This document shows, piece by piece, positions 161 through 61,238 of a stretch of 64,000 nt of DNA; the first letter of the stretch is position 1, and each line of letters starts with the position of its first letter. The translations under genes and the position numbers were made by a program. Below the pieces are notes generated by a model. It was not told where the DNA came from. It ran no database searches and saw only the letters and a program-made list of their open reading frames with translations. Origin of the DNA: Somniosus microcephalus (lineage: Eukaryota); contig CM126217.1 of NCBI GenBank assembly GCA_052327205.1, positions 84,196,001-84,260,000 of the forward strand, given 5' to 3'.

Positions 161-170
161 TGGCGACGAG
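161..170 (+). promoter_or_regulatory. Primer binding site complementary to the 3' end of tRNA-Ser(GCU)
   Basis: TGGCGACGAG, 1 nt after the LTR; the same PBS or a 9-nt core occurs in elements 2, 3 and 5. Confidence 0.85.
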
Positions 171-2763: not shown

Positions 2764-2790
2764 TCGGTTTCAGAAGGTGCGTGCTTTAAT

Positions 2791-3450: not shown

Positions 3451-3455
3451 TGGGT

Positions 3456-4028: not shown

Positions 4029-4138
4029 GAGATTGAATCTGTGAACTGTTTTCCGCAGAGACTGAATCTATGAACTGTTTCCCGCAGAGACTAAATCTGT
4101 GAACTGTTTCCGCAGAGACTACATCTGTGAACTGTTTT
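4029..4138 (+). repeat. About 29-30 bp tandem repeat, roughly 4 copies, in the 3' UTR of element 1
   Basis: Unit approximately GAGACTGAATCTGTGAACTGTTTCCCGCA. Confidence 0.9.
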
Positions 4139-4213
4139 AACATGAAGTTGGATATATGTTATGATGTTATGTTTAATGGGGAATAAGTATGTTGTAAGCT
4201 AAAAAGGGAGGAT

Positions 4214-4469
4214 TGTAGTGTATGTAACTGTTCTACCTTTAAGAGAATTATTGTATGTAACCGTTCACCTTTAAGAGAACTATTTTAGGTGTGGCACTAC
4301 TTTATCTTGGCTGCTGTATACTGTAATACCGACGGTGACCACACCGGTATATAAGTGCTGTGTCAGGATTTATTGGGCAGATTCGCCCTGACCTTCGAAT
4401 AGTAAAGTCCTGTTAAAGTTACTCTTGTAGTCTGTGTATTAATTCGCCATAATACCTACAGACTTTACA
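4214..4469 (+). repeat. 3' LTR of element 1 (256 bp, TG...CA)
   Basis: Starts TGTAGTGTATGTA directly after the PPT; ends TTTACA. Confidence 0.95.
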
Positions 4470-10562: not shown

Positions 10563-11212
10563 CGAAATCGGCATTTAATGAGGTGATAATTGGCTCAAAA
10601 TGGGGTCGGTAGATGTATCGCAATATTACCGCCAAAGCTCATAGACACCGATATTTGTACAGGGAGCTATTGCTGGGTGGCCAGAGCACCCACCTGGTTC
10701 AGTTGGTAGGCCCTCTTTTAAGCCCTCTTTCATTCAGTAAGTGACAACATAACTATACCCATAGTGAGACCATCCAAGAAGCTATCAGTACTGGTTTACA
10801 ACACTTGGGGAGGGATGGGGAGGGTAATTTTAACCGCACCCGCCTGGCAGGGAGCTAACTAGATCGGCTCAGCTGCTAGTGTAACACCCTGTCCGATTTT
10901 TATTTTCCATTGACTTCAACAGAAAGTAAAATCGGGCTGGGTGTAAAACGGGTCCCATCAGTTTCCAGTCAAGTGGGTTAGGTTAACATTAGTGTTATGT
11001 CCGACATTGGGGATAGGTACTAGATTGCCTTGGCCTGAGCACATGAAGTTTGATAGTGCTGTTATCATTATATTATGTCTGACATTGGATATAGGTATTC
11101 GATTGCTTTTGCCTGTAAGAGTGTGGTTGCATCAGCCATTAAAAGCGACATGAGTTAAGTTCTACATACGGCCTCTGGATTATCTTTGCAAACGCAACAT
11201 TTGGCGACGAGG

Positions 11213-14200
11213 ATGGCTGAAATCTCTCTTCCACCAACTCCTCCCTTCCTTGCACTACCTGGTGAGCCCCCGATCCCATGGGTTCGCTGGTTACAGTCCT
11301 TTGAAACCTACCTCATCACTCTCGGACTAGAAAATGTGAGAACAGCACGGAAAAAGGCACTGTTATCCCATTGCTTGGGAGCGGAGGGCCAGCGTGTTCT
11401 TGGGACATTAGGCACAGCAGACTCAATTCAAACATATGATGTGGCTGTGGCTCTGTTAAGCACACACTTCTCTGCCCCACAAAGTGCCCTCCTGCGGCGA
11501 TTCATTTTTAGACAGCGTCACCAACTCCCCGGCGAGCCTGTGCATCAATACATGACTAATTTGAGGGGGTTAGCTAGCTCGTGCAAGTTCGGTGCACTAC
11601 AAGACGAGATGGTGCGTGATCAACTAATAGAGCACACCAACAACGTGAGAGTGCACGAAAGACTGTTACTCGAGTCCGACGATCTGTCGTTGTCACAGGC
11701 AGTTAACATTGCCTTTCAAGTGGAGTCTGCAGCCGAATGTGCAGTGAAACTAGCACACACACCCAGTGACAGTGCCCTCGGCCCCGACAGCTCTGACACA
11801 GTAATGCTCGCGCGACGGCAGCAACGCGCGCTACCGCGGCAACAGTGTGGAAACTGTGGATCTCGTTCACATGCTACCAGAGCGCAGAATTGCCCCGCAC
11901 GTGGCCAAGCCTGTCGCAATTGTGGAAAACAAAATCACTTTGCCAATGTCTGCCGCTCTGCCCCTGTTGCTACAAATGAACACTCTCAGTCCTCAAGCAC
12001 TATAATTCACAACGTGAGCTCTGGGCCAGTAGTGGCTTTCAAGTCATGCACAATTAACCTGAATGATGTGTGCATCCCTCTGTTGTTGGATACTGGTGCC
12101 AGCGTCTCACTGCTGAATGTGGACACATTCAAACATTTTTTCAGCTCCCTGCCACTCTCTGCGCCCTCCACTGCCCTTTGCGGGTATGGTAATTCGAAAA
12201 TTGGACTAGTGGGTTCAGTCAACTTCACTGTACGCTATGGAACAAAAGTTTTGCCAGATTTTTGTTTTCATGTGGCACGCCAAGGAGCTAACCTGATGGG
12301 ACTGGATCTTTTCACTGACCTGGGTTTTTCTCTCTTGGACACCGGCGGGTCTGCGATTCTGCACGTCACCTCACCGTGGCGCCAAACATGGCCAGCATTC
12401 TTCGAGGGTCTGGGCTGCCTGACTGCCTTCACCCACCAGCCCATGGTTGACTCCACCGTTACCCCTGTCATTCAGCCACTGCGCCGCATCCCGCTTGCTC
12501 TCCATGACAGGGTCACAGCTAAACTAAAGCAGCTACTGGAAGCTGGCATCATCGAACCAGTTGATGCCTCCCTATGGGTCTCCAACCTGGTGGTCGCAAA
12601 GAAAAAGTCAGGTGGTCTACGCATCTGTGTCGATCTTTGAGCAGTTAATAAGGCCGTAATCCCTGACAAATATCCACTGCCTACGTCAGAGGAACTCACA
12701 GCGCAGTTCTATGGTTCCGTCCTGTTCTCGAAACTGAACCTTCGACAGGGCTATCTACAGGTTCCCCTCCACCCCAGCAGCAGGGACCTCACTGCTTTTG
12801 TGACACATGCTGGCATCTTTCGGTACACCAGGATGCCATTTGGACTTAGCTCTGCACCCAGCTGCTTCCAAAAGGTGATGTCCTCTATGCTCGCGGGCAT
12901 TCCTGGGGTGGCCATCTACCTGGATGACATCGTCGTGCATGGGCCCTCGACCTCCACTCACGATGAACGCCTTCACAGAGTTTTCACGGCTCTAGCAAAA
13001 CACAAGCTCACACTGAATGGCGAAAAGTGTGTCTTTGCTGTTTCAGAGATCGAATTTGTGGGGTTTCGGTTGTCGGCTGACGGTATATCCCCACTCCAGT
13101 CAAACGTGGATGCCATTCACAGCATCCCAGAACCCAGCTCTGCAGCACAGGTTGCCTCCTTCCTTGGCATGACTGGGTACTACCTGAAGTTTTTGCCCCA
13201 GTACTCAGCCACCACAGCCCCACTGCGCCAGCTCCTGTGAAAGAATGAGCCCTGGGTGTGGTCACAAGCCTGTACGGAAGCTGTTCGCCTCCTCAAATTG
13301 CAGCTCACGTCGCCTCCAGTGTTGGCTCACTTTGATGTCGCCAGCCCCACCCTCGTCACCTGCGACGCGTCCGCTGCAGCTGTGGGGGCAGTGTTATCAC
13401 AGGTACAGAATGGAGTGGAGAAACCAATCGCCTTTGCCTCCCGAGCCCTTAGCCCCACGAACAGAAGTACTCAGCAGGCGAGCGTGAGGCGCTGGCGTGC
13501 GTCTGGGCATGTGAGCGGTGGCACCTGTACACGTATGGCCGTGCCTTCACCCTGCGAACCGATCACCAGGCTCTCACTGCCCTGCTGTCGACATCCGGCA
13601 TGGGCCACAGACCACTGCGTCTACACCGCTGGTCTGACCGCCTCCGCCAATACAATTTCAGTCTCCAGTTCACACCAGGATGTGACAATGTTGTTGCAGA
13701 TCTGCTCTCCCGCACTGTCTCTGCCCCAGCCCCACTCGTCGGGTTTGAACATGTGGAACAGGATATCGTCCAGATGCTGCACACGCCTCTCCAAACCACA
13801 GTCTCTCTCCAGGAGCTCATAGAGGCCTTTGAACAGGATCCGGCCCTCTCTCAGCTGTGCACCTTCATCAGAGATGGCTGGCCTCACAAGGTGCCTGAGG
13901 AACTGTCTGCCTACTCCAGAGTTAAAGAGGAGCTCTCCTGCTGGAATGACTCCTGTATTGCACGTGGGCTCTGCACTGTGGTCCCAAGTGCCCTTTGTGC
14001 GCGTGTTTTATCCATGGCACACGAGGGCCACTTGGGCATAGTGAAGCTCAAACAACGATGCCGAGACCTAGTGTGGTGGCCGGGTATCGACAGGGAAATC
14101 GAGCCCCTGGTCAAGGACTGTGCAGCCTGCCTTGTAAGTGGCAAGACTGGCCACCAAGCTCCTCCACCCCTGCAACCCCTTGCCTGGCCCTCTCAGCCCT

Positions 14201-15312
14201 GGAAGCACCTGCAATTGGACATCTGCGGGGAGATCCATGGTGTCCCCCACCATCAACGGTTCCTAGTGGTGACCTATGATCTGCACTCAAAATTGCCAGA
14301 GGTCACTGCCGTGGGCTCCGTCACCTCTCGGGTCATCATCGATATCCTTGAGTCCCTCTTCTCCCGCTGGGGGCATCCAAAGGCCATCACCACAGACAAT
14401 GGCCCCCAAATGGTCTCTTTGGAACTCTCCTCTTACCTTGAGAGCAAGGGCATCCATCACATACACACATACCACCCCAAGTCAAATGGGGGGGTGGAGC
14501 GTTTTAATCAGACACTGAAAAATGGCCTCCGAGCAAACCTATCCCAGGGGTGTGCGTTTGACAAGGCCCTCCTCCACACACTGCTGCACTACAGAGCCTC
14601 CCAGCATTCCACTACAGGGGTCTCACCCGCATCCCTCATGCTAGGCCATGAGCTCATGCTGCCCCTTGGTAGGCTCCGCCCCTCGCTAGCTCAGAGCCCT
14701 GCTCCACGGGCTCAAGCCACAGTCGCTAGACAGCAGGAGAAGATGAAACTCCGCTTCGACCAGTCGAAGAGGGCCAAGGCGCCCAACATCTCAGTCTCCG
14801 ATTGGGTCAGAGTCCGCAGGCCTCACCGCAACAATAAGATGGCCTCATTCTGGTCCTCCCCTCTCCAAATCAGCCGCCAACTTGGACCAACCACTTTCTG
14901 CCTCACTGACGGCTCTCGGTGGCATGCCAGCCGCCTTCGGAAGGTGCCAGCACCCCCTGATGCGGGATTACACGGATCTAATCCCCAAGCCTTACCCCCA
15001 GAGTGGCGGGATGCACATGTGGCTCAGCCAGCCAACCCTCAAGCAGATATTGTGCCTCAGCCAAAACCTCACCAGTCCCCACCTCGGCTTGCTCCTCCCC
15101 AGTCCCCACCTCGGCCTGTTCGTCACCAGTCCCCACCTCGGCCTGCTCCTCACCAGTCCCCACCTCGGCCTGCTCTTCACCAGTCCGCACCTCGGCCTGC
15201 TCCTCACCAGTCCCCACCTCGGCCTGCTCTTCACCAGTCCGCACCTCGGCCTGTTTGTACACGTTCTCGCCCTGGCCACCTACAGGACTTTGTCACCACA
15301 TTTCATGTTTGA
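11213..15312 (+). pseudogene. gag-pol of element 2 (2xCCHC, PR, RT YLDD, RNase H, integrase) with stops and frameshifts
   Basis: ORF pieces 11186-12640, 12800-13240, 13256-, 13600-15312; motifs LDTGA, YLDD, CDAS, HEGH..C..C, TDNG, VERF. Confidence 0.93.
15067..15252 (+). repeat. 30-bp tandem repeat, about 6 copies, encoding a Pro-rich (HQSPPRPAP-like) integrase tail
   Basis: Repeated CCTCACCAGTCCCCACCTCGGCCTGCT-type units. Confidence 0.9.
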
Positions 15313-15848
15313 AATTCTGTGAGGGGGGAGGAAATGTTTTGTCTGACATTGGGGATAGGTACTCGATTGCCTTGGCCTGAGCACATGAAGTTTGATAGTG
15401 CTGTTATCGTTATATTATGTCTGACATTGGATATAGGTATTCGATTGCTTTTGCCTGTAAGAGTGTGGTTGCATCAGCCATTAAAAGCGACATGAGTTGA
15501 GTTCTACATACGGCCTCTGGATTATCTTTGCAAACGCAACAATTAGGCCTTTGGAATCGATCAACCTCCTTATAAAGGAACACCTTCATTAAGCTGATCT
15601 ATTGAGGAATGAGGTTGAATAGTAGAAGTGACATTCTATTTAAATATTCATTTGAGTTTTGGTCCAGGAAGAATGCAAAACCTTTTACTTTGATTTTTTT
15701 TTTCCCTGTAAAAATCAGTTAAGTAATTTAGGCATCATTGAGGATATGGGATAACCATCAAACTGAGCCCCGATTTAAGCTCAGAGTTTTGATTGTTTAA
15801 TTTGTTTTGGTTCAGTGTATATTTTAATTAGGTAACAGAGTGCGGGCA

Positions 15849-18800
15849 TGTAGTGTATGTACCTTGAAGAAGGAACTATATTCTGCAGCCCCTGTATACT
15901 GCAATACCAGTAGTGACCACCCCGGTATATAAGCCTGTATAGTAGTTCCAGTTTTGTCTCCATTCAGTAAACAACTGTTATAACCAACTTCTGCAGTCCG
16001 TGTCTCAATTACACACGGACGTTACACTGGCGACGAACAGGTCCGAACTTACCTACAGTTCTGCATCACCTCACGGGGATCCATCTCTGAAGCGAAGTTG
16101 TTAGGGGTCGAGGCCAGAAGGAAGAAATCCAAAAAAGAAAAAAAAAACAAACAGAAGAAACGGGTGTCGACCGTGGGCAACCGCCCTCTGATTCATCAAA
16201 TTCGAAGATTTGCAGGAGAGGCTGTCGAGAGCTGGGCTTGGTTATCCAGTCTATGGTGTTCCAGCTAATCGGGCTGGTGGCAGGTAGTACACCGATCCTT
16301 CCTGGGCTGCGGCTGGCTAGAGCTCGATCGGGTGGCTTTTCAACGGGGCCGAGCAGCGTTGTCGGGAAGAGGAGAGAGAGAGAGAGAGGGTGGAGCACAC
16401 AGGGCGCGGCCGGTGCTACGAAGCCAGGCAGCGTACAGACCCGAGAAGAGGGAGGAAAGTGTCCCATAGGGTCTGCTCCGACGACGGGAACAGTAATTAA
16501 AATAAGAGAAATTAGAAGCGCAGAAAGCCGCGAGGAGCTGCAGTTTGCCACGGGGACCGCGGAGAACGGCGTTGGCAGCAGCGCGGGGGGGAAGTGCGCG
16601 AAGACCATAGGGCGTCGCCATCAAGGCATAAAAATGCCAGCAACAGCGCTAGCAGCAGTGGAAAAGACAGAAAGCGCGGGAGGCGCCATCTTAATCCAGC
16701 GGGGAAGAAGGCAAAGCGCGGGAGGTGCCATTTTGTTCAATCGGGGAAGAAGGCAAAGCGCGGGAGGCGACATCTTAGATCTCCAAGATGCCGAAGACTG
16801 GCAATATCACTGCCTTCGATAATGCAATAGAAGACTGGACCACGTATGTGGAAAGAGTCGAAGTATATTGCAAGGCAAATGAAGTAGCCGATGAGAAAAA
16901 GGCATCGGTACTACTAAACTTAATGGGCGCAAGAACGTACGGCCTATTGCGGAACCTGATCACTCCAGTCAAACCGATGGCGAAGAGTTTTAATGAAATT
17001 GTTGATATCCTACAGGAACACCTAAATCCTACAACGCTGCTGATAGCAGAAAGATTTAAATTCCACAAGAGAAATCAGCATAAAGATGAGAGCAATGCTG
17101 ATTACCTTATGGAACTACGCAAGCTATCAAAGCACTGCCAGTTCGGAGCAGGCCTGGCAGATACCCTACGGGACAAATTTGTCTGTGGACTCCTGAGTGA
17201 AGGAACCCAAAAGAGGTTACTCTAGATAAGGCTTTCAGCGTGGCAGTATCGTACGAAGCAGCAGCAAGGGGAGCTGCGGAAATACAGCAAAAGCCACAGG
17301 AATACGGCACCCATGAAATGACACGGGGATTTGAAAAATGTTATCGCTGCGGCAGAACAACCCATGACCAGAAGGACTGCTGGTCCAAGGAAAAAACATG
17401 CAGGCAATGCGGAAAGATGGGACACATTGCACGAGTTTGCAGGTCCGGGAAGAAGACTAACGACAACAAAAAGACTACTAAGGAAAAGTACAGGAAAGTA
17501 CAAAAGATGACGGACAGTAGTTCCGAAGACCAGAAGAGCGATAGTGAATCCGGGAACAAGAGACTAAGCTGTCTCAAACTACACAACGTAATCACAAAAG
17601 AGGATCACCGAACCATTTGGGTCACCCTCACGATAGCAGGGTCCCAAGTCAAAATGGAATTGGATACAGGATCAGCCCTGACTGTCATGGATCGACGAGA
17701 CTACGAGCGGCTATTCTCACACATACCCTTGAAAGACACATCCATTGTCTTGAAGACATATACGGGGCAGAAAGTATACCCCAGAGGGAAAATAAGGGTG
17801 CCTGTCGAATACAACGGCAAGGAAATACAGAAATTGTATCTGTACATACTGCAAGATGGTGGACCACCGTTATTGGGATGTGAATGGATCAGAAAGATAA
17901 GTTTAGACTGGCACTTCATTCAGGCACTGACGGTGGCTGGTAAAAAGGATGACGATGTCACACCTGGACGATTGTCAAAAATCTTGGCTAACACTAAAGA
18001 GGTATTTCAACAAGAACTGGGAACTCTTAAAGGCGTAAATGCCTCAATAAAAATAGAAGAGAATGCAATTCCTAAGTTTTTCAAAGCAAGACCGGTACCG
18101 TATGCAATTCGCCCAGCCGTCGAGGCAGAGCTGGAGAATCTGGAGAATGCAGGTGTGTTAAGTAAGGTAGACTGGAGCAAGTGGGCGACACCCATTGTTC
18201 CTGTCATGAAGAAAACGTTAAACAATAAGTCTGAGGAGCCAAGGAAGGTTCGCATCTGTGGGGACTTCAAGGTGACTGTGAACCCAGTCCTTCACACAGT
18301 ACAGTGTCCTCTTCCGAGGATAGAAGATATTTTCGCCTCACTATCTGGAGGGAAACGTTTTACAAAAATTGACCTAGCGCAAGCATATTTGCAGATGGAG
18401 GTTGAAGAATCCTCTAGGAAATATCTCACGATAAACACTCACAAAGGTCTTTACCAGTATAATCGACTGGTATTCGGAGTTGCATCAGCTCCGGCTATAT
18501 GGCAAAGAGCGATGGAACAAGGCCTGCAAGGGATTCCGGGGACTCAGTGTTACTTGGACGACATCCTAGTGACGGGTGAAAATGACAGTGAACACCTTGC
18601 CAACCTAGAGCAGGTGCTCACTAGACTAAGAGAACATGGGCTACGAGCCAATCGCCCCAAGTGCGAGTTTTTTAAGAAACAAATATCGTATTGTGGCCAC
18701 GTGATTGATGAAGAGTGGTTACATAAGTCCCCTGACAAAATTGAAGCGGTAGTTAAGGCTCCAGCGCCTGAAAATGTGTCGCAACTGAGGTCATTCCTCG

Positions 18801-21016
18801 GATTGGTGAATTACTACCATAAGTTTTTGCCGAATTTGTCCACAATTCTGCACCCACTGAACGCCCTGCTACAAACTGGAGTAGCATGGAAATGGAGCGA
18901 TGAATGTAAGCGGGCCTTTCAGAAGTGTAAAGGCCTGATCACTTCAAGACAAATATTGGCTCACTACAACCCATCACTACCGATAAGACTGGCGTGTGAT
19001 GCGTCTTCCTACGGCGTTGGAGCGGTACTGTCACATAAATCCCTTGATGGTTCAGAGAGGCCGATAGCTTTTGCGTCATGCTCGTTAACTGCAGCGGAGC
19101 GTAACTACACCCAGATTGACAGAGAGGTCCTCAGCCTGGTGTGGGGGGTGAAGAAGTTCAATCACTACCTGCACGGACAGAAATTTACTCTACTAACTGA
19201 TCATCAACCTCTTGTCTCCATTTTCAACCCTAAGAAGGGCGTCCCGATAATGACCGCACAACGGCTACAGAGGTGGTCCCTTTTCCTAGGGGCACACCAA
19301 TATGACATCGAGTACAAAGGAACTAAACAGCATGGGAATGCTGATGGATTGTCGCGCCTACCGTTGCCGACGGTGGAAGAAGCACCTGCAGTGGATCCTG
19401 TGGAGATATTCTACTCGACCATAGTCGAATGTCTACCTGTGATGAATGCAAACATAGAAAAGGAAACACGAAATGACCCGACACTCTCCAGGGTCTATGA
19501 TTTAACGGTGAAGGGATGGCCAGCACATGGCGAACCACTGTTGCCAGCATTCTCGCCGAGAAGAGAACAGCTGTCAGTGTGCCGAGGAACCATGATGTGT
19601 GGATCCAGAGTAGTAATTCCGCCCAAATTGAAGGATAGAGTGCTCAATGAGCTTCATGAGGGTCATCTGGGAGGGGTAAAAATGAAGAACTTAGCCAGAG
19701 CGTTTGTGTGGTGGCCGGGAATCGATAGAGAAATCGAAGAGATGACCAAGAGCTGTACAGGATGCCAGAAGGTCCAAAACGCCCCACCACAAGCCCCTCT
19801 ACATCCATGGGAGTGGCCCTCATCTCCATGGCAAAGGGTACACATTGATTTTGCTGGTCCATTTATGGACTCAATGTTTTTAATTGCGGTGGATGCACAT
19901 TTAAAGTGGCCAGAGGTAATAAAAATGTCCTCAACCACCACAGAAAAAACTATCACAGTCTTACGAACCATATTCGCCAGAAATGGGCTGCCTGAACAGA
20001 TTTGCTCCGACAATGGACCACAGTTTGTGTCTGAAGAGTTCTGGAGGTTCTTAAAGAACAATGGTGTTAAGCATTACACATCCGCCCCATATCATCCAGC
20101 CACCAGTGGATTGGCCGAGAGGTTCGTTCAAACATTCAAGAAGGCTATCAAGGCAATGTGTAATGAAGACATACCCCTACAACACAAGGTGGATAACTTC
20201 TTGTTTGCCTACCGGAATGCGACACATGCGGTTACCAACCAAATTCCAGCCATGATGTTCTTCAATCGAAGACTAAGATGCCGCTTGGATTTGGTTAAGC
20301 CAAACATCAGAAGAGATGTGGAGAACAGGCAGTTTCAGAATATGAATGAAAGGCCAACCAGGAGTTTTAAGATAGGTCAACCAGTTTTGGCCCGGGACTA
20401 CCGCACAGAGAAATGGCAGCCAGGAACGATCTGCACACGGCAAGGACCTCTAATGTATACCGTGGACGTTGGAGAGAGCATTGTAAGACGCCATGCTGAC
20501 CAGATTCTAGAGTCACTGGAAAACGTCAAATCTTCACCATGATCCTATACACCTGGTGATGAAACCGAAGTACCAATTACATCTACCTCAGAATCGGTGA
20601 TATTGGAAGCAGACGAACCAAACAACGACGTTGATCCTGAATCAACTTTGCCAGAAGAACCTGATACCCCAAAGAGGCGTTATCCGGACAGAATCAGGAA
20701 GCCTCCTCAAAGACTGAATTTATAATTGATTAACTTCAGCTAATGTATATCGCAACCGTAATTGTAAATATGTTATTTAATTATTAATCGAATGTTATGT
20801 ACTGTTTAGCTAAAAGGGGAGGAATTGTAGTGTATGTACCTTGAAGAAGGAACTATATTCTGCAGCCCCTGTATACTGCAGTACCAGTAGTGACCACCCC
20901 TGTATATAAGCCTGTGTAGTAACTTTGTATAGTAGTTCCAGTTTTGTCTCCATTCAGTAAACACCTGTTATAACCAACTTCTGCAGTCCGTGTCTCAATT
21001 ACACACGGACGTTACA
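15849..21016 (+). mobile_element. Full-length Ty3/Gypsy (Mag-like) LTR retrotransposon (element 3), related to element 1
   Basis: LTRs 15849-16026 and 20826-21016 (13-bp indel plus a few substitutions); TSD GGGCA; PBS TGGCGACGA at 16028; PPT before 20826. Confidence 0.97.
16788..20725 (+). pseudogene. gag-pol of element 3; frameshifting deletion at about 17222, then 1100-aa open NC-PR-RT-RH-IN, then a late stop at 20540-20542
   Basis: LDTGS, YLDD, ACDAS, HEGH/C..C, D-D-E (HIDF, SDNG, AERF); tail ...RKPPQRLNL*. Confidence 0.93.
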
Positions 21017-27157: not shown

Positions 27158-28711
27158 ATTATGTTCTTTTGACTGTTCCACCAAAAGTACAGATATAGTA
27201 CTGGTGTGAATCTTAATCAGACCGAAACATATATATGTCAACCTAAGGAATCAAATTTGAAATATTCTGGTTTACCATGAACCCATCTGACAAACCTCAA
27301 GACAATTTAAAATATCTGTTCTTGCTTTGTAACAAAGTTTTTAATTTATATATTTTTTTAAAATAGCTTGTCTCCCATGGGCTTATTTACTATTGGTGTA
27401 GGGTATGAAGAACAGCTGTAAAGTTTAGCTGCTAACCTGACCTGTCCCTTTTAGAGATCACTGTTCATGTACTCCACGTGGGGAAGTAGTCTTGAGGTTG
27501 ATTAGAGACTTGTTACTGTACATGAAAGTTTCTCTAGATTGTCAGCTCCTCTCCTTGTTACCTGAACAAATTCCCCGGTTCATTTCACGATAAGAAATTG
27601 CTCAGTTGTGATCTGTTAGTGTTTTCAACAAGGTACGATATTGGGTGTGTGGTGGACACTCATAAAACTTTCATATAAATAGATCATCTCTAGTGGAGGC
27701 AGATACTTTACAGGACATCCTATGGACTTTCCAAATGTTCATTGCTGCTGAACACAATGCCTGGTACAGATTATTTAAATTAACTTACATTTTTTTTTAC
27801 AATTTTTTTCTCGGGATGTCAGTTACAATTATTGCCCGTCTCTAGTTGCTTTAACAACTGAGTGAGTTGCTAGCCTACTTTAAAGGACGCTAAGAGTTAA
27901 CCACATCATGTGGACTAGAGCCACATATAAGTCAGATGAGGTTGGGCTGAAAGATTTCCTGCCCTGAAGAACTTTACTAATCAGTTGGGTTTTTATGACA
28001 ATCCAGCACCATTTTCTGGTGTTAGCCCACAAATTACCACAGTTAATGAATTCAATTCACATGGTGAAGTTATGAACTCATGACCTTTTGGGTTACTAGC
28101 TCAATGATGACATGATGCATTATCTATGAATATTGTAATTTTGTGAGTGAACCACAAGTGTTATAAATACTGGTGGTTTGTGTCCATACCAAGAGGTTAG
28201 GCAAGTGACTTGTTTCTATGCTTCACTCAATTCCACTCAGCACTGCTTTCCAGGATTTGTGGAAGAGGGGCCTGGCTAATTTGTATTCTGATTTTCTTGA
28301 GCTCTGTACAGGATGTGGCTGGTCTGGGACATTGTGAGAAGTGAACCCAAGTGATAATTTTATGTCGCACAGCATGTCGGAGCTCCAAGTGCTGCACCAT
28401 TTATAAGCCTGGATTATTTTTTAATCCTTAATTAAATTTTATTATTCACAGAACTGCGACATGTTATAATTCTGTCAATCCTTATCGGTCTGAACTTCAT
28501 TACTTTGCACGTTCTAGTAACACAGCAAAATCAAGTGTAGTCGTGGAAAGATAAAGCTAGGTATCATCAGCATACACATGAAAGCTGATCCCCGCCCCCC
28601 TCAATGCTTGCAGATGATGTTCATTGAAGGGCAAAATATCAGAGGAATAGGTGAGGACTAAGGATAGAATCTTGGGGCACACTGCAGGTGAAAGTCAGGC
28701 ACAAAAGGAAA

Positions 28712-29132
28712 GAAAGAAAGACTTGCATTTATATAGCGCCTTTCACGACCACCGGACATCTCAAAGCGCTTTACAACCAATGAAGTACTTTTGGAGTGTA
28801 GTCACTGTTGTAATGTGGGAAATGTAGCAGCCAATTTGCGCACAGCAAGCTCCCACAAACAGCAATGTGATAATGACCAGATAATCTGTTTTTGTTGTTG
28901 GTTGAGGGATAAATATTGGCCAGGACACCGGGGATAACTCCCCTGCTCTTCTTCGAAATAGTGCCATGGGATCTTTTACGTCCACCTGTGTGAGCAGACG
29001 GGGCCTCGGTTTAACGTCTCATCCGAAAGACGGCAACTCCAACAGTGCAGCACTCCCTCAGCACTGCACTGCGGTGTCAGCCTAGCCCTTTGTGCTCAAG
29101 TCCCTGGAGTGGGACTTGAGCCCACAACCTTC
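28712..29132 (-). mobile_element. SacSINE1/Deu-domain-type SINE inserted in an L2 remnant
   Basis: Contains GGTTTAACGTCTCATCCGAAAGACGGC..CAGTGCAGCACTCCCTCAG, recalled as Deu-domain core; TTTC-repeat tail; copies at 36345, 41257 and 43385. Confidence 0.8.
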
Positions 29133-36805: not shown

Positions 36806-36898
36806 CTTTTGCCATTAGAGAGGTAGGATACAGCCACTGCAGCATTTTAATATTTAACTCAGGAGCACTAGGAAATCTGCAGTGGAGTAGTAGGAAAG

Positions 36899-39800
36899 TG
36901 TAATGAAATCTGTTTGTCTTGCCTGTATCCGTTTTGCACTCATGTATATTACCCTCCCCCACACGGTGTATAGTTTCACTTCCTCTTTCCTGACTAACCT
37001 GGAAGGTTCCAGGTCTTGGGTCTTGGCTCTTGTCTCCGCCCCTGACTTCTCTTACTTAAAGATCTCAGGATCTGTATGACTCATTCCTGTGAGCCAGTCG
37101 GTGTGTTGAGATGTTAGCTCTGATCTTAGTGATTAAAAGCCAACTTGTTAAAGTCTATAACTTCTAGTTTTGTGGTTATTGAAGGCACATCAATTTTAAT
37201 CACTAAAGAATACTAGGATGGATCGACTCCTAAAACCAGAGCGTCTGGACTTGGATCCACATTCTGCTGAAGCATCAAATCAATTTGGACACTGGCTCAA
37301 ATGCTTCGAACTCTTCGCGAGGGCCTCATCCGCTAGCGAGGTAGATAAACTGAGTCTACTGACTACTCGCGTTAGTCATCGGATTTATTCGTTCATCCGG
37401 GACGCCACCTCTTACACGGAGGCCATCACTATCCTGAAGGCCCAATACCAGAGGCCAGTAAACTAAGTGTACGCCAGACATCTGCTGGCTACACGCAGGC
37501 AGCGACCTGAGGAATCAATGGACGATTTCTTACAAGGCCTAAAGGACTTGGTCCGGGACTGTAACTGCAAGGCCGTGACGGCCAACGTGTACTCTGACGA
37601 ATTGGTCCGCGATTCCTTCATCACGGGCCTCAAATCGAATTATATCCGGCAGAGACTGCTGGAGAAGGAGGTCCTGGACTTAAAAAAGGCAGTGGCCACT
37701 GCGCGATCGCTGGACGTGGCCCAGAAAAACTCTGACTCTTATTCTTCCGGCCATGCGGCCCTCAACGCCTCGTGCGCGCCGAGCGGGCCGCCATCTTGGA
37801 ATCGGCCATCTTCCCCATCCAGGTCTCAGACCAGCTCTACACCGCCGGAGTCCCCACACAGAAGTTCATCCAGGAGTCCTACTATAGCGGCAATGTCTCG
37901 AGGCCTGAAATGCTACTTCTGCGGCCAGGCCAAGCACCCCAGACAACGATGCCCAGCGAAGGATGCTACATGCTTCAAATGTAAGAAAAAGGGGCATTTT
38001 AGCAAAGTCTGCAGGGGGAATCCGATTTCCAACTCCGTCACCGCCTCGTGCGTGCCGTGCGGGCCACCATCTTGGGATCCACCATCTTTTCCCGACTCAA
38101 CGGCCGCCCAGGGCCCAACAGTGGCTTCGATCACGGTGGATCAATCCAGGCCACACCCGTTGACAAAATCCATGATGGACATACAGGTAAACGGGAATTT
38201 AACAAAATGTTTAATTGACTGTGGGAGTACCGAGAGTTTTATCCACCCTAGCCTGGTACGGCGGCACTCATTAACGGTAACCCCTACACGGAGCAGGATT
38301 GCTATGGCTGCTAAGCCCCACACTTCGGACATTTTGGGCTACTGTGTGGTAACACTGACTGTAAAAGGCACGGACTACAAGGATTTTAAACTCCTCGTGA
38401 TGCCAGAACTCTGTGTTAATGTAATCTTGGGCCTGGACTTCCAGTGCCACCACGAAAGTGTCACGCTAGCATATGGCGGGTCCCAGCCGCCACTCACAGT
38501 CTGTGGCCTATCAACCTTAAAAATCAGCCCGCCCTCTTTATTCGCTAATCTCGCTCCGAACTGTAGGCCCATAGCGACCAAAAGTAGACGGTACAGTCTG
38601 GAAGACAGACACTTTATCAAGGCGGAAGTGGACAGACTCCTGCGGGAAGGCATTATTGAATGCAGTACCAGTCCGTGGCGTGCCCAAGTAGTCATAGTTA
38701 AAAATAGCGAAAAGAAACGGATGGTAATTGACTACAGCCAGACTGTTAATATTTATACCCAGCTGGACGCCTACCCTTTACCCCGCATATCAGAAATGGT
38801 CAACCAGATTGCACAATACCGAGTCTTCTCGACTATCGACCTCAAATCCGCGTATCACCAGCTCCCCATTAGAACGGAGGACCGCACATACACCGCCTTT
38901 GAGGCGAACGGACGCCTCTACCATTTTCTCAGAGTGCCCTTCGGGGTAACAAATGGGGTCTCAGTCTTCCAACGTGAGATGGACCGCATGGTTGACGAGA
39001 ATAAACTACAAGCTACCTACCCCTATCTGGACAATGTCACTATCTGCGGGCACAACCAGCAAGACCACGATCTAAATCTTGCGAGATTTTTAAAAACTGC
39101 CCTAAAGCTGAATCTAACCTACAACGAAAACAAATGTGTCTTCAACACAGCCCGTCTCTGTATCCTCGGCTGTGTGGTGGAAGATGGGGTAATTGGACCG
39201 GACCCTGACCGATTACACCCCCTAAAGGAACTGCCCCTGCCACACAATCCCAAAGCTTTAAAAAGGTGCCTGGGATTTTTTTCGCATTATGCCCAATGGG
39301 TGCCCAATTACTCTGATAAGGCCCGACCCCTCATTAAATCGACGTCCTTCCCACTATCAGCTGAAGCTCGGGAGGTTTTCACCAGTATCAAACAGGACAT
39401 TGAAAGGGCTGCACTGTGTGCAGTGGACGAAAGCATCCCTTTCAAGTCGAAAGCGATGCGTCAGACTTTGCCTTAGCTGCGACCCTCAATCAGGCTGGGA
39501 GACCTGTGGCCTTCTTCTCCCGAACCCTTCAGGGACCTGAAATCAGGCACTCTTCTGTCGAGAAGGAGGCACAGGCTATAGTGGAGGCAGTGCGGCACTG
39601 GAGACACTACCTAGCCGGCAAACGTTTCACCCTGCTCACTGACCAGCGGTCGGTGGCTTTCATGTTTAATAACAAAGGGGGAAAATCAAGAATGACAAAA
39701 TACTCAGGTGGAGGATCGAACTATCCACGTTCGACTATGATATTATGTACAGGCCGGGAGCCCTTAATGAACCCCCAGACGCCCTATCGCGGGGAATGTG

Positions 39801-41251
39801 TGCCAGCATTCATACGGACAAATTACAGGGTCTCCACAACGACCTCTGTCACCCAGGGGTCACCCGACTATACCATTTTATAAAGTCCCGCAATCTGCCC
39901 CACTCCACCGAGGAGGTCAGGGCAATGACCAGAGCCTGCCGCATCTGTGCGGAATGCAAGCCTCGTTTCTACAGGCCTGACCGTGCACACCTTATCAAAG
40001 CCACACGGCCATTCGAGCGCCTAAGTCTGGACTTCAAGGGACCCCTTCCCTCTGCCGACCGTAACGTATACTTCCTCAATATCATCGATGAATATTCCCG
40101 CTTCCCCTTCGCCATTCCCTGCCCAGACATGACCAGTGCCACGGTCATCAAGTGTCTCGGTAATCTATTCTGCATGTTTGGCATGCCGAACTACATACAC
40201 AGCGATAGGGGGACGTCATTTATGAGTGACGAACTGCGCCAGTTCTTGCTCTCAAAGGGGATAGCCACTAGCAGAACCACTAGCTACAACCCCCGGGGTA
40301 ATGGGCAAGTGGAAAGGGAGAATGCTACTGTTTGGAAGGCTGTCACGTTAGCCTTAAAGTCAAAAGACCTTCCGACCTCCTGCTGGCAGGAAGTCCTCCC
40401 AGACGTGCTCCACTCCATAAGGTCTCTGTTATGTACAGCCACTAATGCTACCCCTCATGAAAAGATGTTCGTTTTCCCCCGGAAATCCACCTCGGGCATA
40501 TCTCTACCCGCGTGGCTGACGTCTCCGGGGACAGTACTATTGCGGAAGCACGTGAGAGGCCATAAAACGGACCCCCTTGTGGAAAAGGTACAGCTCCTCC
40601 ATGCAAACCCTCAGTACGCCTATATCGAATACTCTGACGGGCGAGAGGACACTGTTTCCATAAAAGACCTCGCTCCCTCGGGGAGCGGAGAGAACGATGA
40701 GAGACTACCCGAGGAAGACCTACACCAAAAAGAGACAGGATGCCCAGAGGTATCAATACCCAACTTTAACCTGGAGGACACTGCAGATAACCTGGAAGAC
40801 ACTGCGGAGGCCCGGACAGCGGAGGAACCAGAATCCACTCCCCTAGAGGCACCCCAACCGGCTTTGCGCCGATCACTGAGAACCGCAAAACCTCCTGACA
40901 GACTCACTTATACCAACTTTTAAGAAACATCACCCCGATGGACTAAATCTAAAGAAGGGGTGAATGTAATGAAATCTGTTTGTCTTGCCTGTATCCGTTT
41001 TGCACTCATGTATATTACCCTCCCCCACACGGTGTATAGTTTCACTTCCTCTTTCCTGACTAACCTGGAAGGTTCCAGGTCTTGGCTCTTGGCTCCGCCC
41101 CTGACTTCTCTTACTTAAAGATCTCAGGATCGGTATGACTCATTCCTGTGAGCCAGTCGGTGTGTTGAGATGTTAGCTCTGATCTTAGTGATTAAAAGCC
41201 AACTTGTTAAAGTCTATAACTTCTAGTTTTGTGGTTATTGAAGGCACATCA
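36899..41251 (+). mobile_element. Full-length Ty3/Gypsy LTR retrotransposon lacking a tRNA PBS (element 4)
   Basis: LTRs 36899-37192 and 40965-41251 (7-bp indel, few substitutions); TSD GAAAG; PPT AAAGAAGGGGTGAA before 40965. Confidence 0.97.
37218..40923 (+). pseudogene. gag-pol of element 4 with one stop (37464-37466) and frameshifts near 39440 and 39680
   Basis: 2xCCHC, LIDCGS protease, YLDN RT motif, ESDAS RNase H, integrase H..H..C..C and D-D-E (SLDF, SDRG, VERE). Confidence 0.92.
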
Positions 41252-41256
41252 GAAAG

Positions 41257-41365
41257 AGAGAAAGACTTGCATTTATATAGCGCCTTTCACAACCACCGGA
41301 CATCCCAAAGTGCTTTACAGCCAATGAAGTATTTTTGAAGTGTAGTCACTGTTGTAAAATAGGAA
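41257..41365 (-). mobile_element. 3' fragment of Deu-type SINE adjoining element 4
   Basis: Near-identical to 28712-28820. Confidence 0.75.
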
Positions 41366-42450
41366 GTGGGTTCGCATCCAACATTTCCCACATGGGGGAA
41401 GCGATATCATGAATGCATCCAAAAAGCACACTGTAATGATGTTGCCGCACATAGGAACTATAGCAATGATCACATCCTCCCCAATAATGAGCTTCTAAAC
41501 TCAATTCTATCATTGTGGGACGATGGAAAGCAAAGGCCAGGCATATCCTCATAGGGAGGGAGAGAACGTTGGGCACACTTGTGTGCTTCCTCAGGTTTGG
41601 CTACAAAGTGTCACTGGCAGTGGACTGTGGCTACGTCTCCAGCCTATCATCTCTGCTGAGACATGTAGACAAAAGACAGAAATAAATAAATTACAAACTG
41701 CTTATTGTTGATGGCAAGCCAACAGACGACCCAGACCTGTTTTTTTTCATTCCTAAGCTGTCTGCTCGACTTTATTCAAAGTTGCTCAATTCAAACTATC
41801 TTAAAAAAATATCATTTTATAGCCCTAAATTCCTACTTTGCTGTGTTAGTTACCTCGCTTTGTTGAAATTATTGGTTATTCAAAATGTTTTCAGTGCAAT
41901 AAACAACTTGTAGACTGTAGTTCAATCCATTATAATTACCATTGTAAATCTTGAGGCTTGCTGTAACATCTGTCAAAAATTCTATGAAATATGATACTGA
42001 GATCTGATACTTTCTATCCCAAGCCTGTCCCATTTTGATCCTCTTTAAAATCAACTTTGTCAGACATTCCACATTCTTATTTTAACCTTAAGGTTGCTTT
42101 CCTCCTAACTTTTTAGTTTTCCTCGTTTACAATTTGAATTTGTCTTTTGAATCTGGGCTTATAAAATAGAAATGTTAATAAGAAATACACAAGATTGTTA
42201 AACATAACTCTAACATTGTATACTCAAATTTCTGATTGGCAGTAGCATTATGGTGGATCCACTATCAGCAGGAATATGTTGAGAGTGGTATATCCACTGG
42301 TGGCAGATTTACTGCTGGTCTCTAGTTTCTACCCAATAGTAATGGTTACTACCAGAATCATTAAAAACAAATTAAATCAATTACTTTAAGAGGTGGGGCA
42401 ACTGGAAAACTTCCCGTTTATAAACTGAAACACAATTAGCAACATAAATA

Positions 42451-52147: not shown

Positions 52148-55100
52148 TGTTGTATTTGTACCGCTATACACAACTACATAAAATAATAAAGCAGCAGAGA
52201 CTGAGAGTAACTTCAAGTGATCTTTCCTGGGTAACTGGAACTTCGGCACTGACTATACAAATCGATACGCGTCTGTTATATACGCTCGCAACTAAGGATG
52301 TACATCCACAAAACAAAGTAGTCCCTTCACAATGTTGTATACATTACACTTCCTCCCCCTTTAGTTTAATAGTATATTAACGCAAAATTTCTATAATTAA
52401 CATACAGAGCCTGTCTTTACAGTAACCTTTTTGTTTTCTTAAAAGTAACAAAATTCAAATTCCAACATAACATTTTATTTTGTCAACAGCCCTTTTACAA
52501 GTCAAGTTTCTGGGGAGGCCTCCTCTGCCTCTCTGGGTAACGTCTCTCCAGACTCTTTTGCTTTGGGGAATGAGACTGTACAGGTACATTAGGTGAGCTA
52601 TCAGCACAGGTAGAGCTCTCAGCTGTGGATGAGGCTGGTGCTGATGCTGATGAATCAGCAGTGTCTGTTTCCATGTCAGGTGAGTCTGGGCGAGGTATAG
52701 GGGTGTTTTCCACCTGAACATCCTGAATTTGGTCCACATGACATCTCAAAACGTTCTCTCCCACATCCACAGTATACATCAGTGGTCCCTCTCTTGTGGA
52801 TATTGTCCCTGGTTGCCACTTTTCCGTCCAGAAATCACGAGCAAGAACTGACTGTCCCACACTGAAGCTTCTTGTTGGCTTAGCATTCAAATGTTTGAAC
52901 TGTTTGTTCTCTACACCACGACGTACATTCGGTTTAAGAAGGTCCATGCGAGATCTCAGGTTCCTGTTCAGAAACATCATCGCTGGAGTCTGATTAGTGG
53001 CTGCGTGTACTGCGGGAGATTGTCTATCAAAGAGGAAATTGTCTATCTTGTGTTGCAGTGGTAGATTCTCACTGTACATTGCTTTGATGGCCTTCTTGAA
53101 AGTCTGTACGAATCTTTCTGCCAAGCCATTTGTAGCTGGATGGTACGGGGCAGATGTGTAGTGCTTGATTCCATTTTTCCTCATGAAACCTTGGAATTCG
53201 TCAGAGACAAATTGTCGTCCATTGCCTGTGCAGATTTGTTCTGGTAGGCCATTTCTAGCGAACATGGTCCTCAGAACTGAAATGGTCTTTTCAGATGTGG
53301 TTAATTTCATTTTAATGACCTCGGGCCATTTGGAATGTGCATCGACTGCAATCAAGAACATGGAGTCCATGAACGGTCCAGCAAAGTCGATGTGCACACG
53401 TTGCCATGGTGATGAGGGCCATTCCCATGGATGGAGAGGGGCTTGTGGTGGTGCGTTCTGGACCTTTTGACATCCTGAGCAGCTCTTTGTCAGGTCCTCG
53501 ATTTGTTTGTCAATTCCCGGCCACCACACGTAACCACGGGCAAGGCTTTTCATCTTTACTGTACCTAAGTGGCCTTCGTGCAGTTCATCTAGCACTCAGT
53601 TACGAAGCTTGGGAGGAATCACAACTCGTGAGCCGCACATCAGTGTTCCCCGACACACTGATAACTGCTCCCTCCTAGCTGAGAATGCTGGAAACAATGA
53701 GTCACCATGCGCTGGCCATCCCTTCACAGTGATGTCATAAACTTTTGACAATGTAGGGTCATTGCGTGTTTCTCTTTCAATGAGGGAGTTTGTCACTGGT
53801 AGCTGCTCAACTATTGTTGTGTGAAATACCTCTGCTGAGTCAACTGTTGTAGTTCTCTCTGAGGTCGGCAGTGGTAAACGTGACAAACCATCGGCGTTGC
53901 CATGTTGCTTGGTCCCCTTGTATTCAATGTCATACAGGTGAGCCCCTAGGAAGAGTGACCATCGCTGCAGCCATTGTGCCGTCATCACTGGAACGCCCTT
54001 CCTTGGGTTGAAAATTGAAATGAGAGGCTGGTGGTCAGTTAACAGTGTAAACTGTTGACCATACAAGTAGTGGTTGAATTTCTTGACTTCCCACACAAGG
54101 CTGCGGGCTTCTCGGTCAATCTGTGCATAATTGCGTTCAGCTGTATTCAATGAACTTGAGGCAAAGGCTATTGGTCTTTCTGAGCCGTCTGGGAACTTAT
54201 GTGACAACACGGCACCAATGCCATGGGGTGAAGCATCACATGCCAGTCGAATAGGTAAGGATGGTTCAAAGTGAGCTAGCACCTCTTCTGAAGTAATGAG
54301 TCTCTTACTCTCTTGAAAAGCTTGTTCACAGCTGTCACTCCACTTCCATTGTGACCCTGTCTGTAGCAGTGCATTTAGTGGATGTAACACTGTGGATAGG
54401 TTGGGCAAGAACTTGTGATAGTAGTTCACCAGTCCAAGATATGATCTCAACTGAGACACATTTTCAGGTGTTGGTGCATTAATCACAGCTTCAATCTTGT
54501 CTGGAGACTTGTGTAAACCATCCTTGTCAATCACATGTCCACAGTATGAGATTTCCTTTTTGAAAAACTCACACTTGTCTCGGTTCGCTCGGAGCCCATA
54601 TTCCCGTAACCTGATGAGCACCTGTTCGAGGTTGGAAAGGTGGTCATTGTCATTCTTGCCAGTAATGATGATGTCATCAAGATAACACTGAGTACCTGGG
54701 ATCCCCTGCAGGACTTGGTCCATTGCCCTTTGCCAGATTGCAGGAGCTGGTGCTATTCCGAATACCAGCCGATTGTACTGGTAAAGGCCTTTGTGCGTAT
54801 TTATTGTCAGGTACTTCTTTGATGCATCATCAATTTCCATTTGGAGATAGGCCTGGGCCAAGTCAATCTTTGTGAAGCGTTCCCCTCTTGACAGGGAAGC
54901 AAAGATGTCCTCGATGCGAGGCAATAGGTACTGCACTGTGTGGAGGACTGGGTTAACAGTCACTTTAAAGTCTCCACAGATGCGCACTTTTCTTGGCTTT
55001 CCTGGTTTTGTGCTGGAGGTTTTCTTCATCACTAGAACTATAGGTGTGGCCCATTCACTCCAATCCACCTTGGACAGGGCCCCTAATTGCTCCAAGTTCT

Positions 55101-56918
55101 CCAGCTCTGCTTCTACTGAAGGGCGAATTGCATAAGGCACTGGTCTGGCCTTGTGGAACTTTGGATTTGCGTTCTCCTCAATCTTAATTTTTGCTTTCAT
55201 GCCCTTAAGTGTTCCTATTCCCTTCTTGAACACTTCCTGAGAGTCAGAGAGTATTTGTGACAGTCTCTCAGGAGTGGCGTTGCTGTCCTCCTTTGCTGAC
55301 ACAAACAGTGCTTGGATGGTGTGCCAATCCAACTGTATTTTCCTGAGCTATTCGCGTCCCAACAATGGTGGTCCTCCATTTTTCAGTACATAGAGGTTCA
55401 ATTGCGGTATTTTTTTTTCTTTGTATGTCACTGTCACTTTTATTTTACCTTTGGGGCACACTCTTTGTCCTGTGTATGTCTTTAACAGTACTTTAGTTGG
55501 CCTTAGCGGTATGTGTGAAAACAGTCGTTTGTAGTCATGTACAGAGATCACTGTTAAAGCTGAGCCTGTGTCCAACTCCATTTTCAGCCTAACTCCTGCT
55601 ACTTCTGGAGTAACCCATATTATTCTGTGATCCCCTGTCTCTTTCACACTGTGTAGTTTTAGACAAGCCAGATCCTCTTCCTCTGAGTCTGTCACTTTTT
55701 TCTTTATCTGAACTGTCTCCAGTCATGTGGTGTACCTTCTTGTATCTATCTTTGAAAGGTTTCTTGTTTTCAGTCACTTGATGTACCTTTTTGTTACTCT
55801 GTATTGTATCAGTTTTCTGCTTCTTATTTGCTTTGCAGACTCTTTCAATTTGCCCTCGTCTGCCACATTGTTTGCAGTCTTTATCTTTAAACCAAGTGTC
55901 ATTGTGGTCATGTGACATTTTGCCACAGTGATAGCACTTCTTTTCTTGTTTCAGTGACATTTTATTAGTTGAATATTCCAGGGATTTTTGTTGAATTTCT
56001 AAAGCGCCACGTGCTGCTGCTTCCATTGATATTGCAATACTCAGAGCCTTCTCCAATCTGAGGTCTTTTTCAGACAGGAGCTTCTTTTGTGTGCTTTCAC
56101 TTTGCATGCCACACACAAATCTGTCCCTCAATGCGTCTGATAAGCCCACTCCAAATTGGCAATGTTCTGATAATTTGTGCAACTTTGCCAAATATTCAGA
56201 AATGCTTTCATTTTTGCTCTGGTTCCGTTTATGGAATTTAAATCTTTCGGCTATGAGCAGTGGTTTGGGGCTTAAATGGTCTTGGAGTGTGTCCACTATT
56301 TGTTTGAATGTTTTGTTTGCTGGCTTTTCAGGGGTTAATAAACTACGTAGCAGCCCATATGTCTTTGCACCCATAACACTCAGCAAAACAGTGGCTTTCT
56401 TTTCTACCTCCACTCCGTTAGCCTCACAGTACAACTCCACTCTTTCAATGTAAGTTACCCAGTCTTCAATGCTGCTATCAAATGCTGCAATCGTGCCAAT
56501 CATCACCATTTTTTTTCCAAACCCGTTTTTCTTTCTTTACTAGTTAGCTAGCGTCATGCAAGTCCTGTGCACTTTTCACTTGACTTACGTATCCCCTGCC
56601 TAGCTTAGCAAGCGTGCTCCATTTTCTCTACCTTCTCGCTCCTTTCTTCCAAATTTCGGTGTCCTCTGGATGCGATGCCAGAATAGGAAGACGTAGGTTC
56701 ATAATTCTCGTCGCCAATTTGTTGTGTTTGTACCGCTATACACAACTACATAAAATAATAAAGCAGCAGAGACTGAGAGTAACTTCAAGTGATCTTTACT
56801 GGGTAACTGGAACTTCGGCACTGACTATACAAATCGATACGCGTCTGTTATATACGCTCGCAACTAAGGATGTACATCCGCAAAACAAAGTAGTCCCTTC
56901 AATGTTGTATACATTACA
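52148..56918 (-). mobile_element. Full-length Ty3/Gypsy (Mag-like) LTR retrotransposon, decayed (element 5)
   Basis: LTRs 56720-56918 (5') and 52148-52348 (3'); TSD GATGG; PBS at 56707-56716; PPT at 52349-52363. Confidence 0.97.
52495..56509 (-). pseudogene. gag-pol of element 5 with a frameshift (about 55695), two stops and an integrase D->G change (CTGNG)
   Basis: ORF pieces 55589-56509, 55348-55695, 53596-55332, 52495-53595; protein closely similar to element 3. Confidence 0.93.
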
Positions 56919-57518
56919 GATGGCATCATCACATGAGTCCCAGTGGAGGGTAGATGCAAGCAGTACCTTGCTTGCTTCCAGAGGGTCGGAGAACTGGCAG
57001 ATCCAGGTTCTACCCAAAGTGAATGCCTGTCTGCCCAGTTGTTGCTTGTAATCCTTGCATTTTGCCAAAACCCTGGCAGATTTGGCGGAAGTCTGATTGG
57101 TGTTTATTTTAATTTTGGAATAATTCTAAATGTTTTAGATATACAGTCCCCACCGCTTATAGCGGGCGCATTCGTGTGAACGCAATTTGCCTGCTATACG
57201 CGGTGGCCATTGGGTTAGATCAATTTCAAGCTGAATTTACAAGCAGAACGCTGGTGATTCTCCGAAGTAGCGGTCAGGAAGTGGCCCCTTGCAGGCAATC
57301 TCTCCACATTTGCTCCAACTGGTTATCTATGTTCAATAAATTGGAGATAAGTAAAGGGAGTCCTAACAGAGTGCATTGTAGGAACTGGCTGTTTTTGTGT
57401 CGAGGATACGGCAAAAATATTTTACATTTACATAATTCTGAAATGCCAATGATTGTGATAATGGGCCAGAACTTGCTGGAGTGGGGCGTCTCGTGGCGTG
57501 ATCCATCAGTTAGACTCA

Positions 57519-60991: not shown

Positions 60992-61238
60992 TGTGATGAA
61001 ATATATGCCTTCATCAGCCCCTGTGTTTTACCTGCTTTGTATTGTGTGTACCGCCCCCTTTTTCCTATTGTGTGTATTGGCTACGCCCCTGTCTTTTGTC
61101 ATATAAAGGTCTCAAGAGCTGTATGAGTCATTCTATCAGACGAACCCAATGTGGAAAGACCTGCAATGTTCTTAGTGATTAAAAGTCTTCAGTTGAATCC
61201 TTTAAACTCCTTGTCTTTGAGTTATTGATGGCACATCA
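60992..61238 (+). mobile_element. Solo LTR (247 bp) of a family related to element 4
   Basis: TGTGATGAAAT ... GTTATTGATGGCACATCA with TSD GAGAA; shares termini and TCTTAGTGATTAAAAG with the element 4 LTR. Confidence 0.88.

Follow-up and report, generated by a model that had tools for sequence, protein, structure and literature searches.

A Ty3/gypsy retrotransposon of Somniosus microcephalus that probably primes reverse transcription with its own RNA

The stretch of Somniosus microcephalus DNA analyzed here (64,000 nucleotides, hereafter the window) harbors a high density of young LTR insertions, and one of them raises the question of what primes its reverse transcription. This is a young Ty3/gypsy element, as judged from LTRs of the TG...CA type, a target-site duplication, a polypurine tract and the domain order PR-RT-RH-IN (Table 1). 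As the initial annotation had claimed, no TGG primer-binding site (PBS) is found within the first bases after its 5′ LTR; a single base behind the LTR end, the position of the PBS is occupied by 13 nucleotides that are indeed the exact reverse complement of a motif within the same LTR.

The two LTRs of the element differ by two substitutions and one 7-nucleotide indel. The window copy is defective, with a stop codon at 37464-37466 and two frame breaks at about 39.4-39.7 kb, in the RNase H region; in open copies of the family gag-pol forms one long frame. The family as a whole is large and of recent origin: each of the 40 scored DNA matches was at least 99% identical by score (listed as 100), and all 150 scored gag matches were at 99-100%. 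The two CCHC knuckles annotated initially were present in the translation, and the supposed lack of a chromodomain held for an open-frame copy of the family and four relatives, the domain being detected in the control element L189. At an E of 0.05 neither a chromodomain nor a Tf2-type SH3 domain was found in any of five proteins of the clade formed by the element and its relatives, both being recovered in L189, and these domain families were represented in 0 of the 120 homologs listed. The RT active-site motif (window 38580-39419) reads YLDN in the window copy and in many relatives, and has the usual DD in others; our literature search found no paper on the YLDN variant. The element lies inside a short repeat (36894-36898, 41252-41368), another copy of which is located at 28708-28824.

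Table 1. Features of the element and of further LTR insertions, in window coordinates
Feature	Position	Strand	Remark
Left target-site duplication GAAAG	36894..36898	+	5 bp; right copy 41252-41256
5′ LTR, TG...CA	36899..37192	+	294 nt
Candidate upstream promoter	37036..37087	+	predicted from conservation
GC box	37036-37042	+	candidate promoter part
TATA-like box	37055-37060	+	candidate promoter part
Initiator-like TCATT	A at 37083	+	candidate promoter part
LTR motif TTAGTGATTAAAA	37126..37138	+	complementary to the PBS position
11-nt core	37128-37138	+	within the LTR motif; predicted self-primer end
ATTAAA	37132-37137	+	inside the LTR motif
Predicted cut	between 37138 and 37139	+	LTR positions 240/241
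Spacer base A	37193	+	single base from LTR end to PBS
Primer-binding position TTTTAATCACTAA	37194..37206	+	complementary to own LTR; no TGG
gag-pol region, Gag(2 CCHC)-PR-RT-RH-IN	37218..40923	+	broken in window copy; no chromodomain
Two CCHC knuckles of Gag	37911-38012	+	seen in translation
Polypurine tract	40951..40964	+	then AA before the 3′ LTR
3′ LTR	40965..41251	+	287 nt; second motif copy at 41185-41197
Four other LTR elements	1-4471, 10993-15544, 15849-21016, 52148-56919		TGGCGACG-type primer site in all
Solo LTR, sister family B	60993..61238	+	same 13-nt motif at 61172-61184, 54 nt before LTR end

When LTRs were Markov-shuffled, only 9 of 200,000 had a complement of at least 13 nucleotides starting 0-5 nucleotides after the LTR. 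When the real sequence of the window was scanned in sliding steps, at least 13 nucleotides were reached at 66 of about 63,600 positions, which are non-independent and overlap the 37126/37194 pair itself and other inverted repeats. Global folding z-scores of the region were unremarkable (−0.53 and −0.99, not significant), so that the signal lies in position and covariation and not in folding energy.

We also inspected elements of other types. TGG-primed controls showed an LTR complement of 3-7 nucleotides (four elements of the window and nine of ten fetched stretches), and the DUF7041- and PNMA-type elements that were fetched had TGG primer sites. In four of seven chromodomain-type stretches of the same genome the LTR pair could be resolved, and each of these four carried one spacer base followed by exactly 11 complementary bases. 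We take the L189-type chromodomain elements to be the Tf1/sushi group and, among the comparison rows, the TGG-primed ones to be Mag-like, those with DUF7041 CsRN1-like and those with PNMA Barthez-like. The best match of the motif to host tRNAs was 7 nucleotides, in a rough parse of 63 tRNA genes of which 30 were read, covering only three tRNA types.

Compensatory change in related families

Among 7,999 scored long proteins, 491 were relatives at an E of 1e-50 or better, the named ones coming from a ray, two Trichuris species (nematodes), an isopod and a damselfly, and none was found in viral contigs. The scans provided 79 metagenome and 6 genome-contig loci; six bacterial genome bins (L170-L175) included contigs that bear such retrotransposons of animals, likely as host contamination. 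In family B, 12 of the 30 loci read were 5′ LTRs, all of which carry the same PBS.

The comparison of families started from 36 rows. Seven had no upstream sequence, and for two of these, L105 and later L172, it could be taken from the other end of the contig; L110 and L164, with no LTR upstream, were dropped, seven near-duplicates were merged, L109 (split over contig ends, its complement visible by eye) was left out, and for L117, which has a mutated motif in the 5′ LTR, the score was taken from the 3′ LTR. In each of the 21 resulting families or subfamilies, which are related to each other and whose pairing register was chosen by best match, the 11 nucleotides of the PBS pair with the own LTR while the letters change. 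All 21 rows pair at 10 or 11 of these positions, 17 perfectly and four with one G-U or mismatch. Beyond the core, position 12 is paired in 20 rows, position 13 in 19 and position 14 in 12, positions 17-20 being at background, and positions 4-13 show two to four different pair types. There are 19 distinct LTR 13-mers and 20 distinct PBS 13-mers, each PBS following its own LTR and none beginning with TGG. Pairing with the own LTR averaged 12.7 of 13 positions vs. 8.7 when partners were swapped between families, and none of 100,000 permutations reached the observed pairing sum. The same behavior was seen on a small scale in L096, where, compared to five sister copies, one motif base is changed in both LTRs together with the matching PBS base. 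Motif and PBS thus change together across the 21 rows, and the covariation that the initial annotation had named as a check on its proposal is present in the relatives.

The 3′ arm always starts exactly one nucleotide after the LTR end, with a loop varying from 23 to 65 nucleotides. The spacer base is A in 21 of 21 rows, a count partly built in, as the LTR-end anchor fixed the spacer and the first two PBS bases; where both LTRs were present, LTR-LTR alignment confirmed the LTR end. A purine occupies position 11 in 19 of the 21 rows. In most families the pairing extends over 13-16 nucleotides, longer than the 11 of Tf1, which counts against a strict likeness to that element. In L091/L093 and L101/L104 it covers 16-19 nucleotides and reaches the gag start codon, an arrangement that could couple priming and translation.

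As an out-of-sample test, the extent of the core was also read in loci retrieved with a search pattern that put no constraint on the upstream part of the motif. This pattern had 3,695 matches vs. 87 for a reversed control, and 43 of the 50 loci read belonged to a third family, C. Four others (L272, L275, L276 and L277) showed neither pairing nor a clade gag and probably represent background matches, and the LTR of L278 is interrupted by another element. Positions 1-11 are paired in 39 of the 43 family C copies, the four exceptions being single copies; position 12 is paired in 31, position 13 in 24 and position 14 in none. The predicted 11-nucleotide core is therefore the most strictly kept stretch in family C, and appears obligatory with positions 12-13 optional. 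Position 10 is A-T or G-C according to subfamily. In one subfamily 11 of 13 copies keep a mismatch at position 12; as a longer primer, if routinely copied, would be expected to remove it, its persistence would favor a strictly Tf1-like, short primer.

Aberrant insertions and candidate transcription starts

Two of the loci retrieved with the pattern just described showed, at first, a PBS that continues as an inverted copy of U3. Targeted patterns provided 43 candidates in families A and B, all of which were read, and 68 in family C, 30 of which were read, with no match for the reversed-control patterns. An inverted U3 of at least 20 nucleotides follows the PBS in 36 of the 43 A/B loci and in 26 of the 30 C loci (62 of 73 together), and most full-length inversions end exactly at the LTR start. 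In L302, L314, L343, L344 and L359 the inverted copy continues beyond the start of the LTR and takes in the polypurine tract and integrase sequence. Seven of 13 checked aberrant units have their own 5-bp target duplication, which indicates that they are separate integration events. Such units would be the expected product of a plus strand ended by the PBS that folds back on the motif. What they demonstrate is an encounter of a PBS-ended strand with the motif; they do not tell where the primer comes from. Partial inverted copies that return to the forward element mostly end 15-71 nucleotides from the motif end (one at 168), and the 15-71 nucleotide ends could reflect either a primer tail or early template switching.

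Aberrant units amount to about 2% of the family C pattern counts (68 vs. about 3,700). Some are mini-units of about 410-425 nucleotides (L273, L337, L348, L353, L354, L358 and L363), in which one LTR is followed by a single base and by U3 in inverted orientation. Every one of these mini-units is flanked by a 5-bp target duplication of its own; as long hairpins, they could give rise to small RNAs.

The position of the RNA end was approached through the left junctions that join an LTR piece to other sequence. There are 17 distinct ones, classified by eye, with two that recur in two loci each counted once and nine of the 43 A/B loci excluded on account of another element nested in the LTR. Eight of the 17 start at most 10 nucleotides from the motif end (p about 1e-4 in a binomial test, with 10% expected), the remaining nine lying elsewhere. 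Five junctions have an exact donor in the own element and start at or after the motif: the microhomology windows of four of them (238-245, 240-245, 240-244 and 236-241) intersect at LTR positions 240-241, and the fifth is at 273-279. In simulations on this five-junction subset the probability was 0.00016 for position 241 set beforehand and 0.006 for any shared position. The simplest reading of these sequences would be that minus-strand strong-stop DNA ends at 241, the RNA template being cut right behind the motif with the geometry of Tf1. Aberrant insertions would in this way allow the cut site of a self-primer to be read from genome sequence, an approach usable on any high-copy family.

In A/B LTRs a GC-rich element with a shared terminus was inserted many times 16-26 nucleotides behind the motif (L294, L300, L309, L311, L312, L318, L323, L333, L335 and L278, and probably L032, L046 and L049), which suggests that this part of the LTR is a preferred target.

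A GC box, a TATA or TATA-like box and TCATT are common to families A and B, at a spacing of 28 nucleotides and 44-45 nucleotides before the core, and most families have no TATA box 25-31 nucleotides before the core. The conserved signals near 37083, where a transcription start had been named in the initial annotation as an argument against strict Tf1-style priming, speak against a strict Tf1 version, in which transcription would begin at the A of TTAGT, and would allow a longer primer. In two raw RNA runs from a related organism, both dominated by read-through, reads of either strand covered the LTR, many read-through ends fell where the LTR ends, and a pile-up of RNA starts was observed neither at 37126-37128 nor at 37083. 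A pyrimidine tract followed by AG, resembling a 3′ splice site, lies 7-44 nucleotides upstream of the core in L105, L109, L172, L175 and family C, where LTR introns and an upstream start may exist. We also considered a primer made by splicing, given a GTGAG 39 nucleotides before the motif core and the pyrimidine tract and AG that precede it in some families; this was rejected for the window family because the unspliced motif pairs over 13 nucleotides and the intron would measure about 41 nucleotides.

Proposed priming mechanism and its alternatives

Taken together, we consider it likely, with a probability of about 0.86, that the element uses its own RNA to prime reverse transcription, this RNA being cut behind the motif in a Tf1-like manner with an 11-nucleotide core. 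The motif would form the 5′ end of the transcript or lie close to it. The motif would then pair with the PBS over the core and one to three optional positions, as the covariation suggests, and the junction positions point to a cut of the RNA between LTR positions 240 and 241, by analogy with Tf1 presumably made by RNase H, whereupon the freed 3′ end would prime minus-strand DNA one base from the LTR end. At a later stage the plus strand would end in a PBS copy and could mis-anneal to the motif, giving the inverted-U3 by-products found among the aberrant copies. The primer copied back into the PBS would carry LTR mutations there, which would explain the fast compensatory change. Predicted pairing probabilities over the core were 0.69-1.0 for RNAs starting at 37126 or upstream; for an RNA from 37128 to 37300 pairing was only about 0.24, which counts against the proposal. 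The claim made at the outset, self-priming outside the chromoviruses, is thus supported by covariation among families and subfamilies, by the RT tree described below and by by-products that break at the motif end.

With regard to the form of the primer, we favor by about two to one a short capped RNA of 11-13 nucleotides over a longer one with an unpaired 5′ tail, the constant 11-nucleotide core, the purine at position 11 and the position-12 mismatch of family C being points for the short version. A more tentative possibility, to which we give a rather low probability, is a self-priming of independent origin and unlike that of Tf1, in which transcription would start about 45 nucleotides upstream and a primer of about 55 nucleotides would pair through its last 11-13 bases, with the poly(A) signal hidden. 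Such a primer would resemble a tRNA with an unpaired tail, and the partial inversions that mostly end within 71 nucleotides of the motif end would be the trace of that tail.

The initial annotation had also put forward that the pairing masks the poly(A) signal in the 5′ LTR. AATAAA or ATTAAA does lie inside the paired arm in 13 of the 21 rows, and self-pairing would hide the signal as well, so this part may stand as an added role; as the only function, exerted by a regulatory hairpin in an element that uses some other primer, it is very improbable. In the remaining eight rows the arm contains neither hexamer, the 3′ arm stays fixed one nucleotide after the LTR while the loop varies, no other primer site is present, and the junctions cluster at the motif end. 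Hardly better placed is a primer supplied by the motif of the 3′ LTR, from the same or a second packaged RNA, on a template that starts at or is trimmed to 241. A template 5′ end at 241 would fit it equally, and the five inversions that continue into integrase reveal a molecule with the 3′ part of the element as template or primer; however, the stop of most full-length inversions at the LTR start corresponds to a snap-back of plus-strand strong-stop DNA, the promoter-like signals precede the motif, and the literature searched, available in part, offered no precedent. The least probable source is a host tRNA, a tRNA half or another small RNA, with the LTR match being secondary. Half-tRNA priming exists in copia lineages according to the available text of PMC6317226, and the 7-nucleotide best match comes from the three tRNA types of our rough parse, but the distinct PBS 13-mers track their own LTR from row to row and none has the TGG start.

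Phylogenetic placement and comparison with known systems

In an unrooted RT-RH tree of 52 rows and 428 columns, the 28 clade rows and the 14 chromovirus rows were each split off from all others by a well-supported branch (100/100 and 100/99), with a long stem leading to the clade, and the tRNA-primed Mag-, CsRN1- and Barthez-like elements formed separate clades. In a test on 28 rows, forcing the clade together with vertebrate and fungal chromoviruses was rejected (p-AU 0.008); a position as sister to all chromoviruses was not rejected (p-AU 0.34). The RT phylogeny proposed as a check therefore separates the clade from the sampled chromoviruses, and the sequences support the view that it would lie outside them. 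BEL loci tried as outgroup were too distant for the profile and were unused, and a SCAN-domain search for a further outgroup found nothing. Since the tree is unrooted, with a long stem and no named Tf1 or sushi sequence among its rows, tRNA-free priming in the clade could be either ancient or independently arisen. Motif searches of paper texts and supplements gave no match to a name for the clade; it may already be named among MolGy, PolGy, Cigr-1, Tor or Cer, none of which had reference sequences here.

The sources cited in this section were available in part, and what follows is limited to that text. In Tf1, the first 11 bases pair and RNase H cuts between bases 11 and 12 (PMC7175516); start-site choice has been treated for Tf2 (PMC5341516) and self-priming has been proposed for Tj1 (PMC4600332). 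PMC6317226 extends self-priming over Tf1/sushi, Tcn1 and TAR, predicting it in plant Tcn1/TAR from a complement of at least 10 nucleotides that starts 0-5 nucleotides after the LTR, and its available text names no animal non-chromodomain gypsy clade with this trait. PMC3601003 regards hairpin priming as a trait of some chromoviruses and tRNA priming as possibly late. In the literature consulted, self-priming is experimental in fission yeast only, and predicted in chromovirus kin and a plant copia lineage. No report of self-priming in a non-chromodomain animal gypsy clade was found in the literature searched, a scope that leaves out subscription papers and Repbase notes, nor in the available parts of PMC6934838, PMC5006619, PMC2582038, PMC6238403, PMC8556966, PMC2774666, PMC9873768 and PMC13524379. 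Our observations are best explained as a known, Tf1-like kind of priming that would be new for a clade outside the sampled chromoviruses.

If a broad animal clade does self-prime, tRNA-free priming would be ancient or have arisen repeatedly, with consequences for the question of a late origin of tRNA priming. Elements of this kind would be independent of tRNA ends and could not be blocked through them, and PBS annotation based on tRNAs misses self-primed elements.

Compared to Tf1 and Tf2 of Schizosaccharomyces pombe and Tj1 of S. japonicus, the clade equally has no tRNA site, a PBS complementary to the own LTR, an 11-nucleotide core and a cut, here predicted, right after the paired stretch. 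It differs from them in its animal hosts, its two CCHC knuckles without chromodomain or Tf2-type SH3, a pairing often of 13-16 nucleotides, a poly(A) signal often inside the primer and, with respect to Tf1, a transcription start possibly 45 nucleotides upstream of the motif. With the vertebrate chromodomain gypsy elements of the same genome it shares the single spacer base and the 11-nucleotide complement to the own LTR; in those elements, however, the duplex is exactly 11 nucleotides and about 150 nucleotides from the LTR end, compared to 23-65 in the clade, and together with their fish relatives they belong to a separate RT-RH clade. Plant Tcn1 gypsy and TAR copia elements answer to the same self-priming definition in plant hosts, and TAR, a copia element, makes this a trait already known outside chromoviruses (PMC6317226). 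The tRNA-primed Mag-, CsRN1- and Barthez-like gypsy elements have the same domain order, the Mag-like ones also a similar size, but unlike the clade they carry TGG sites and at most 7 nucleotides of LTR complement.
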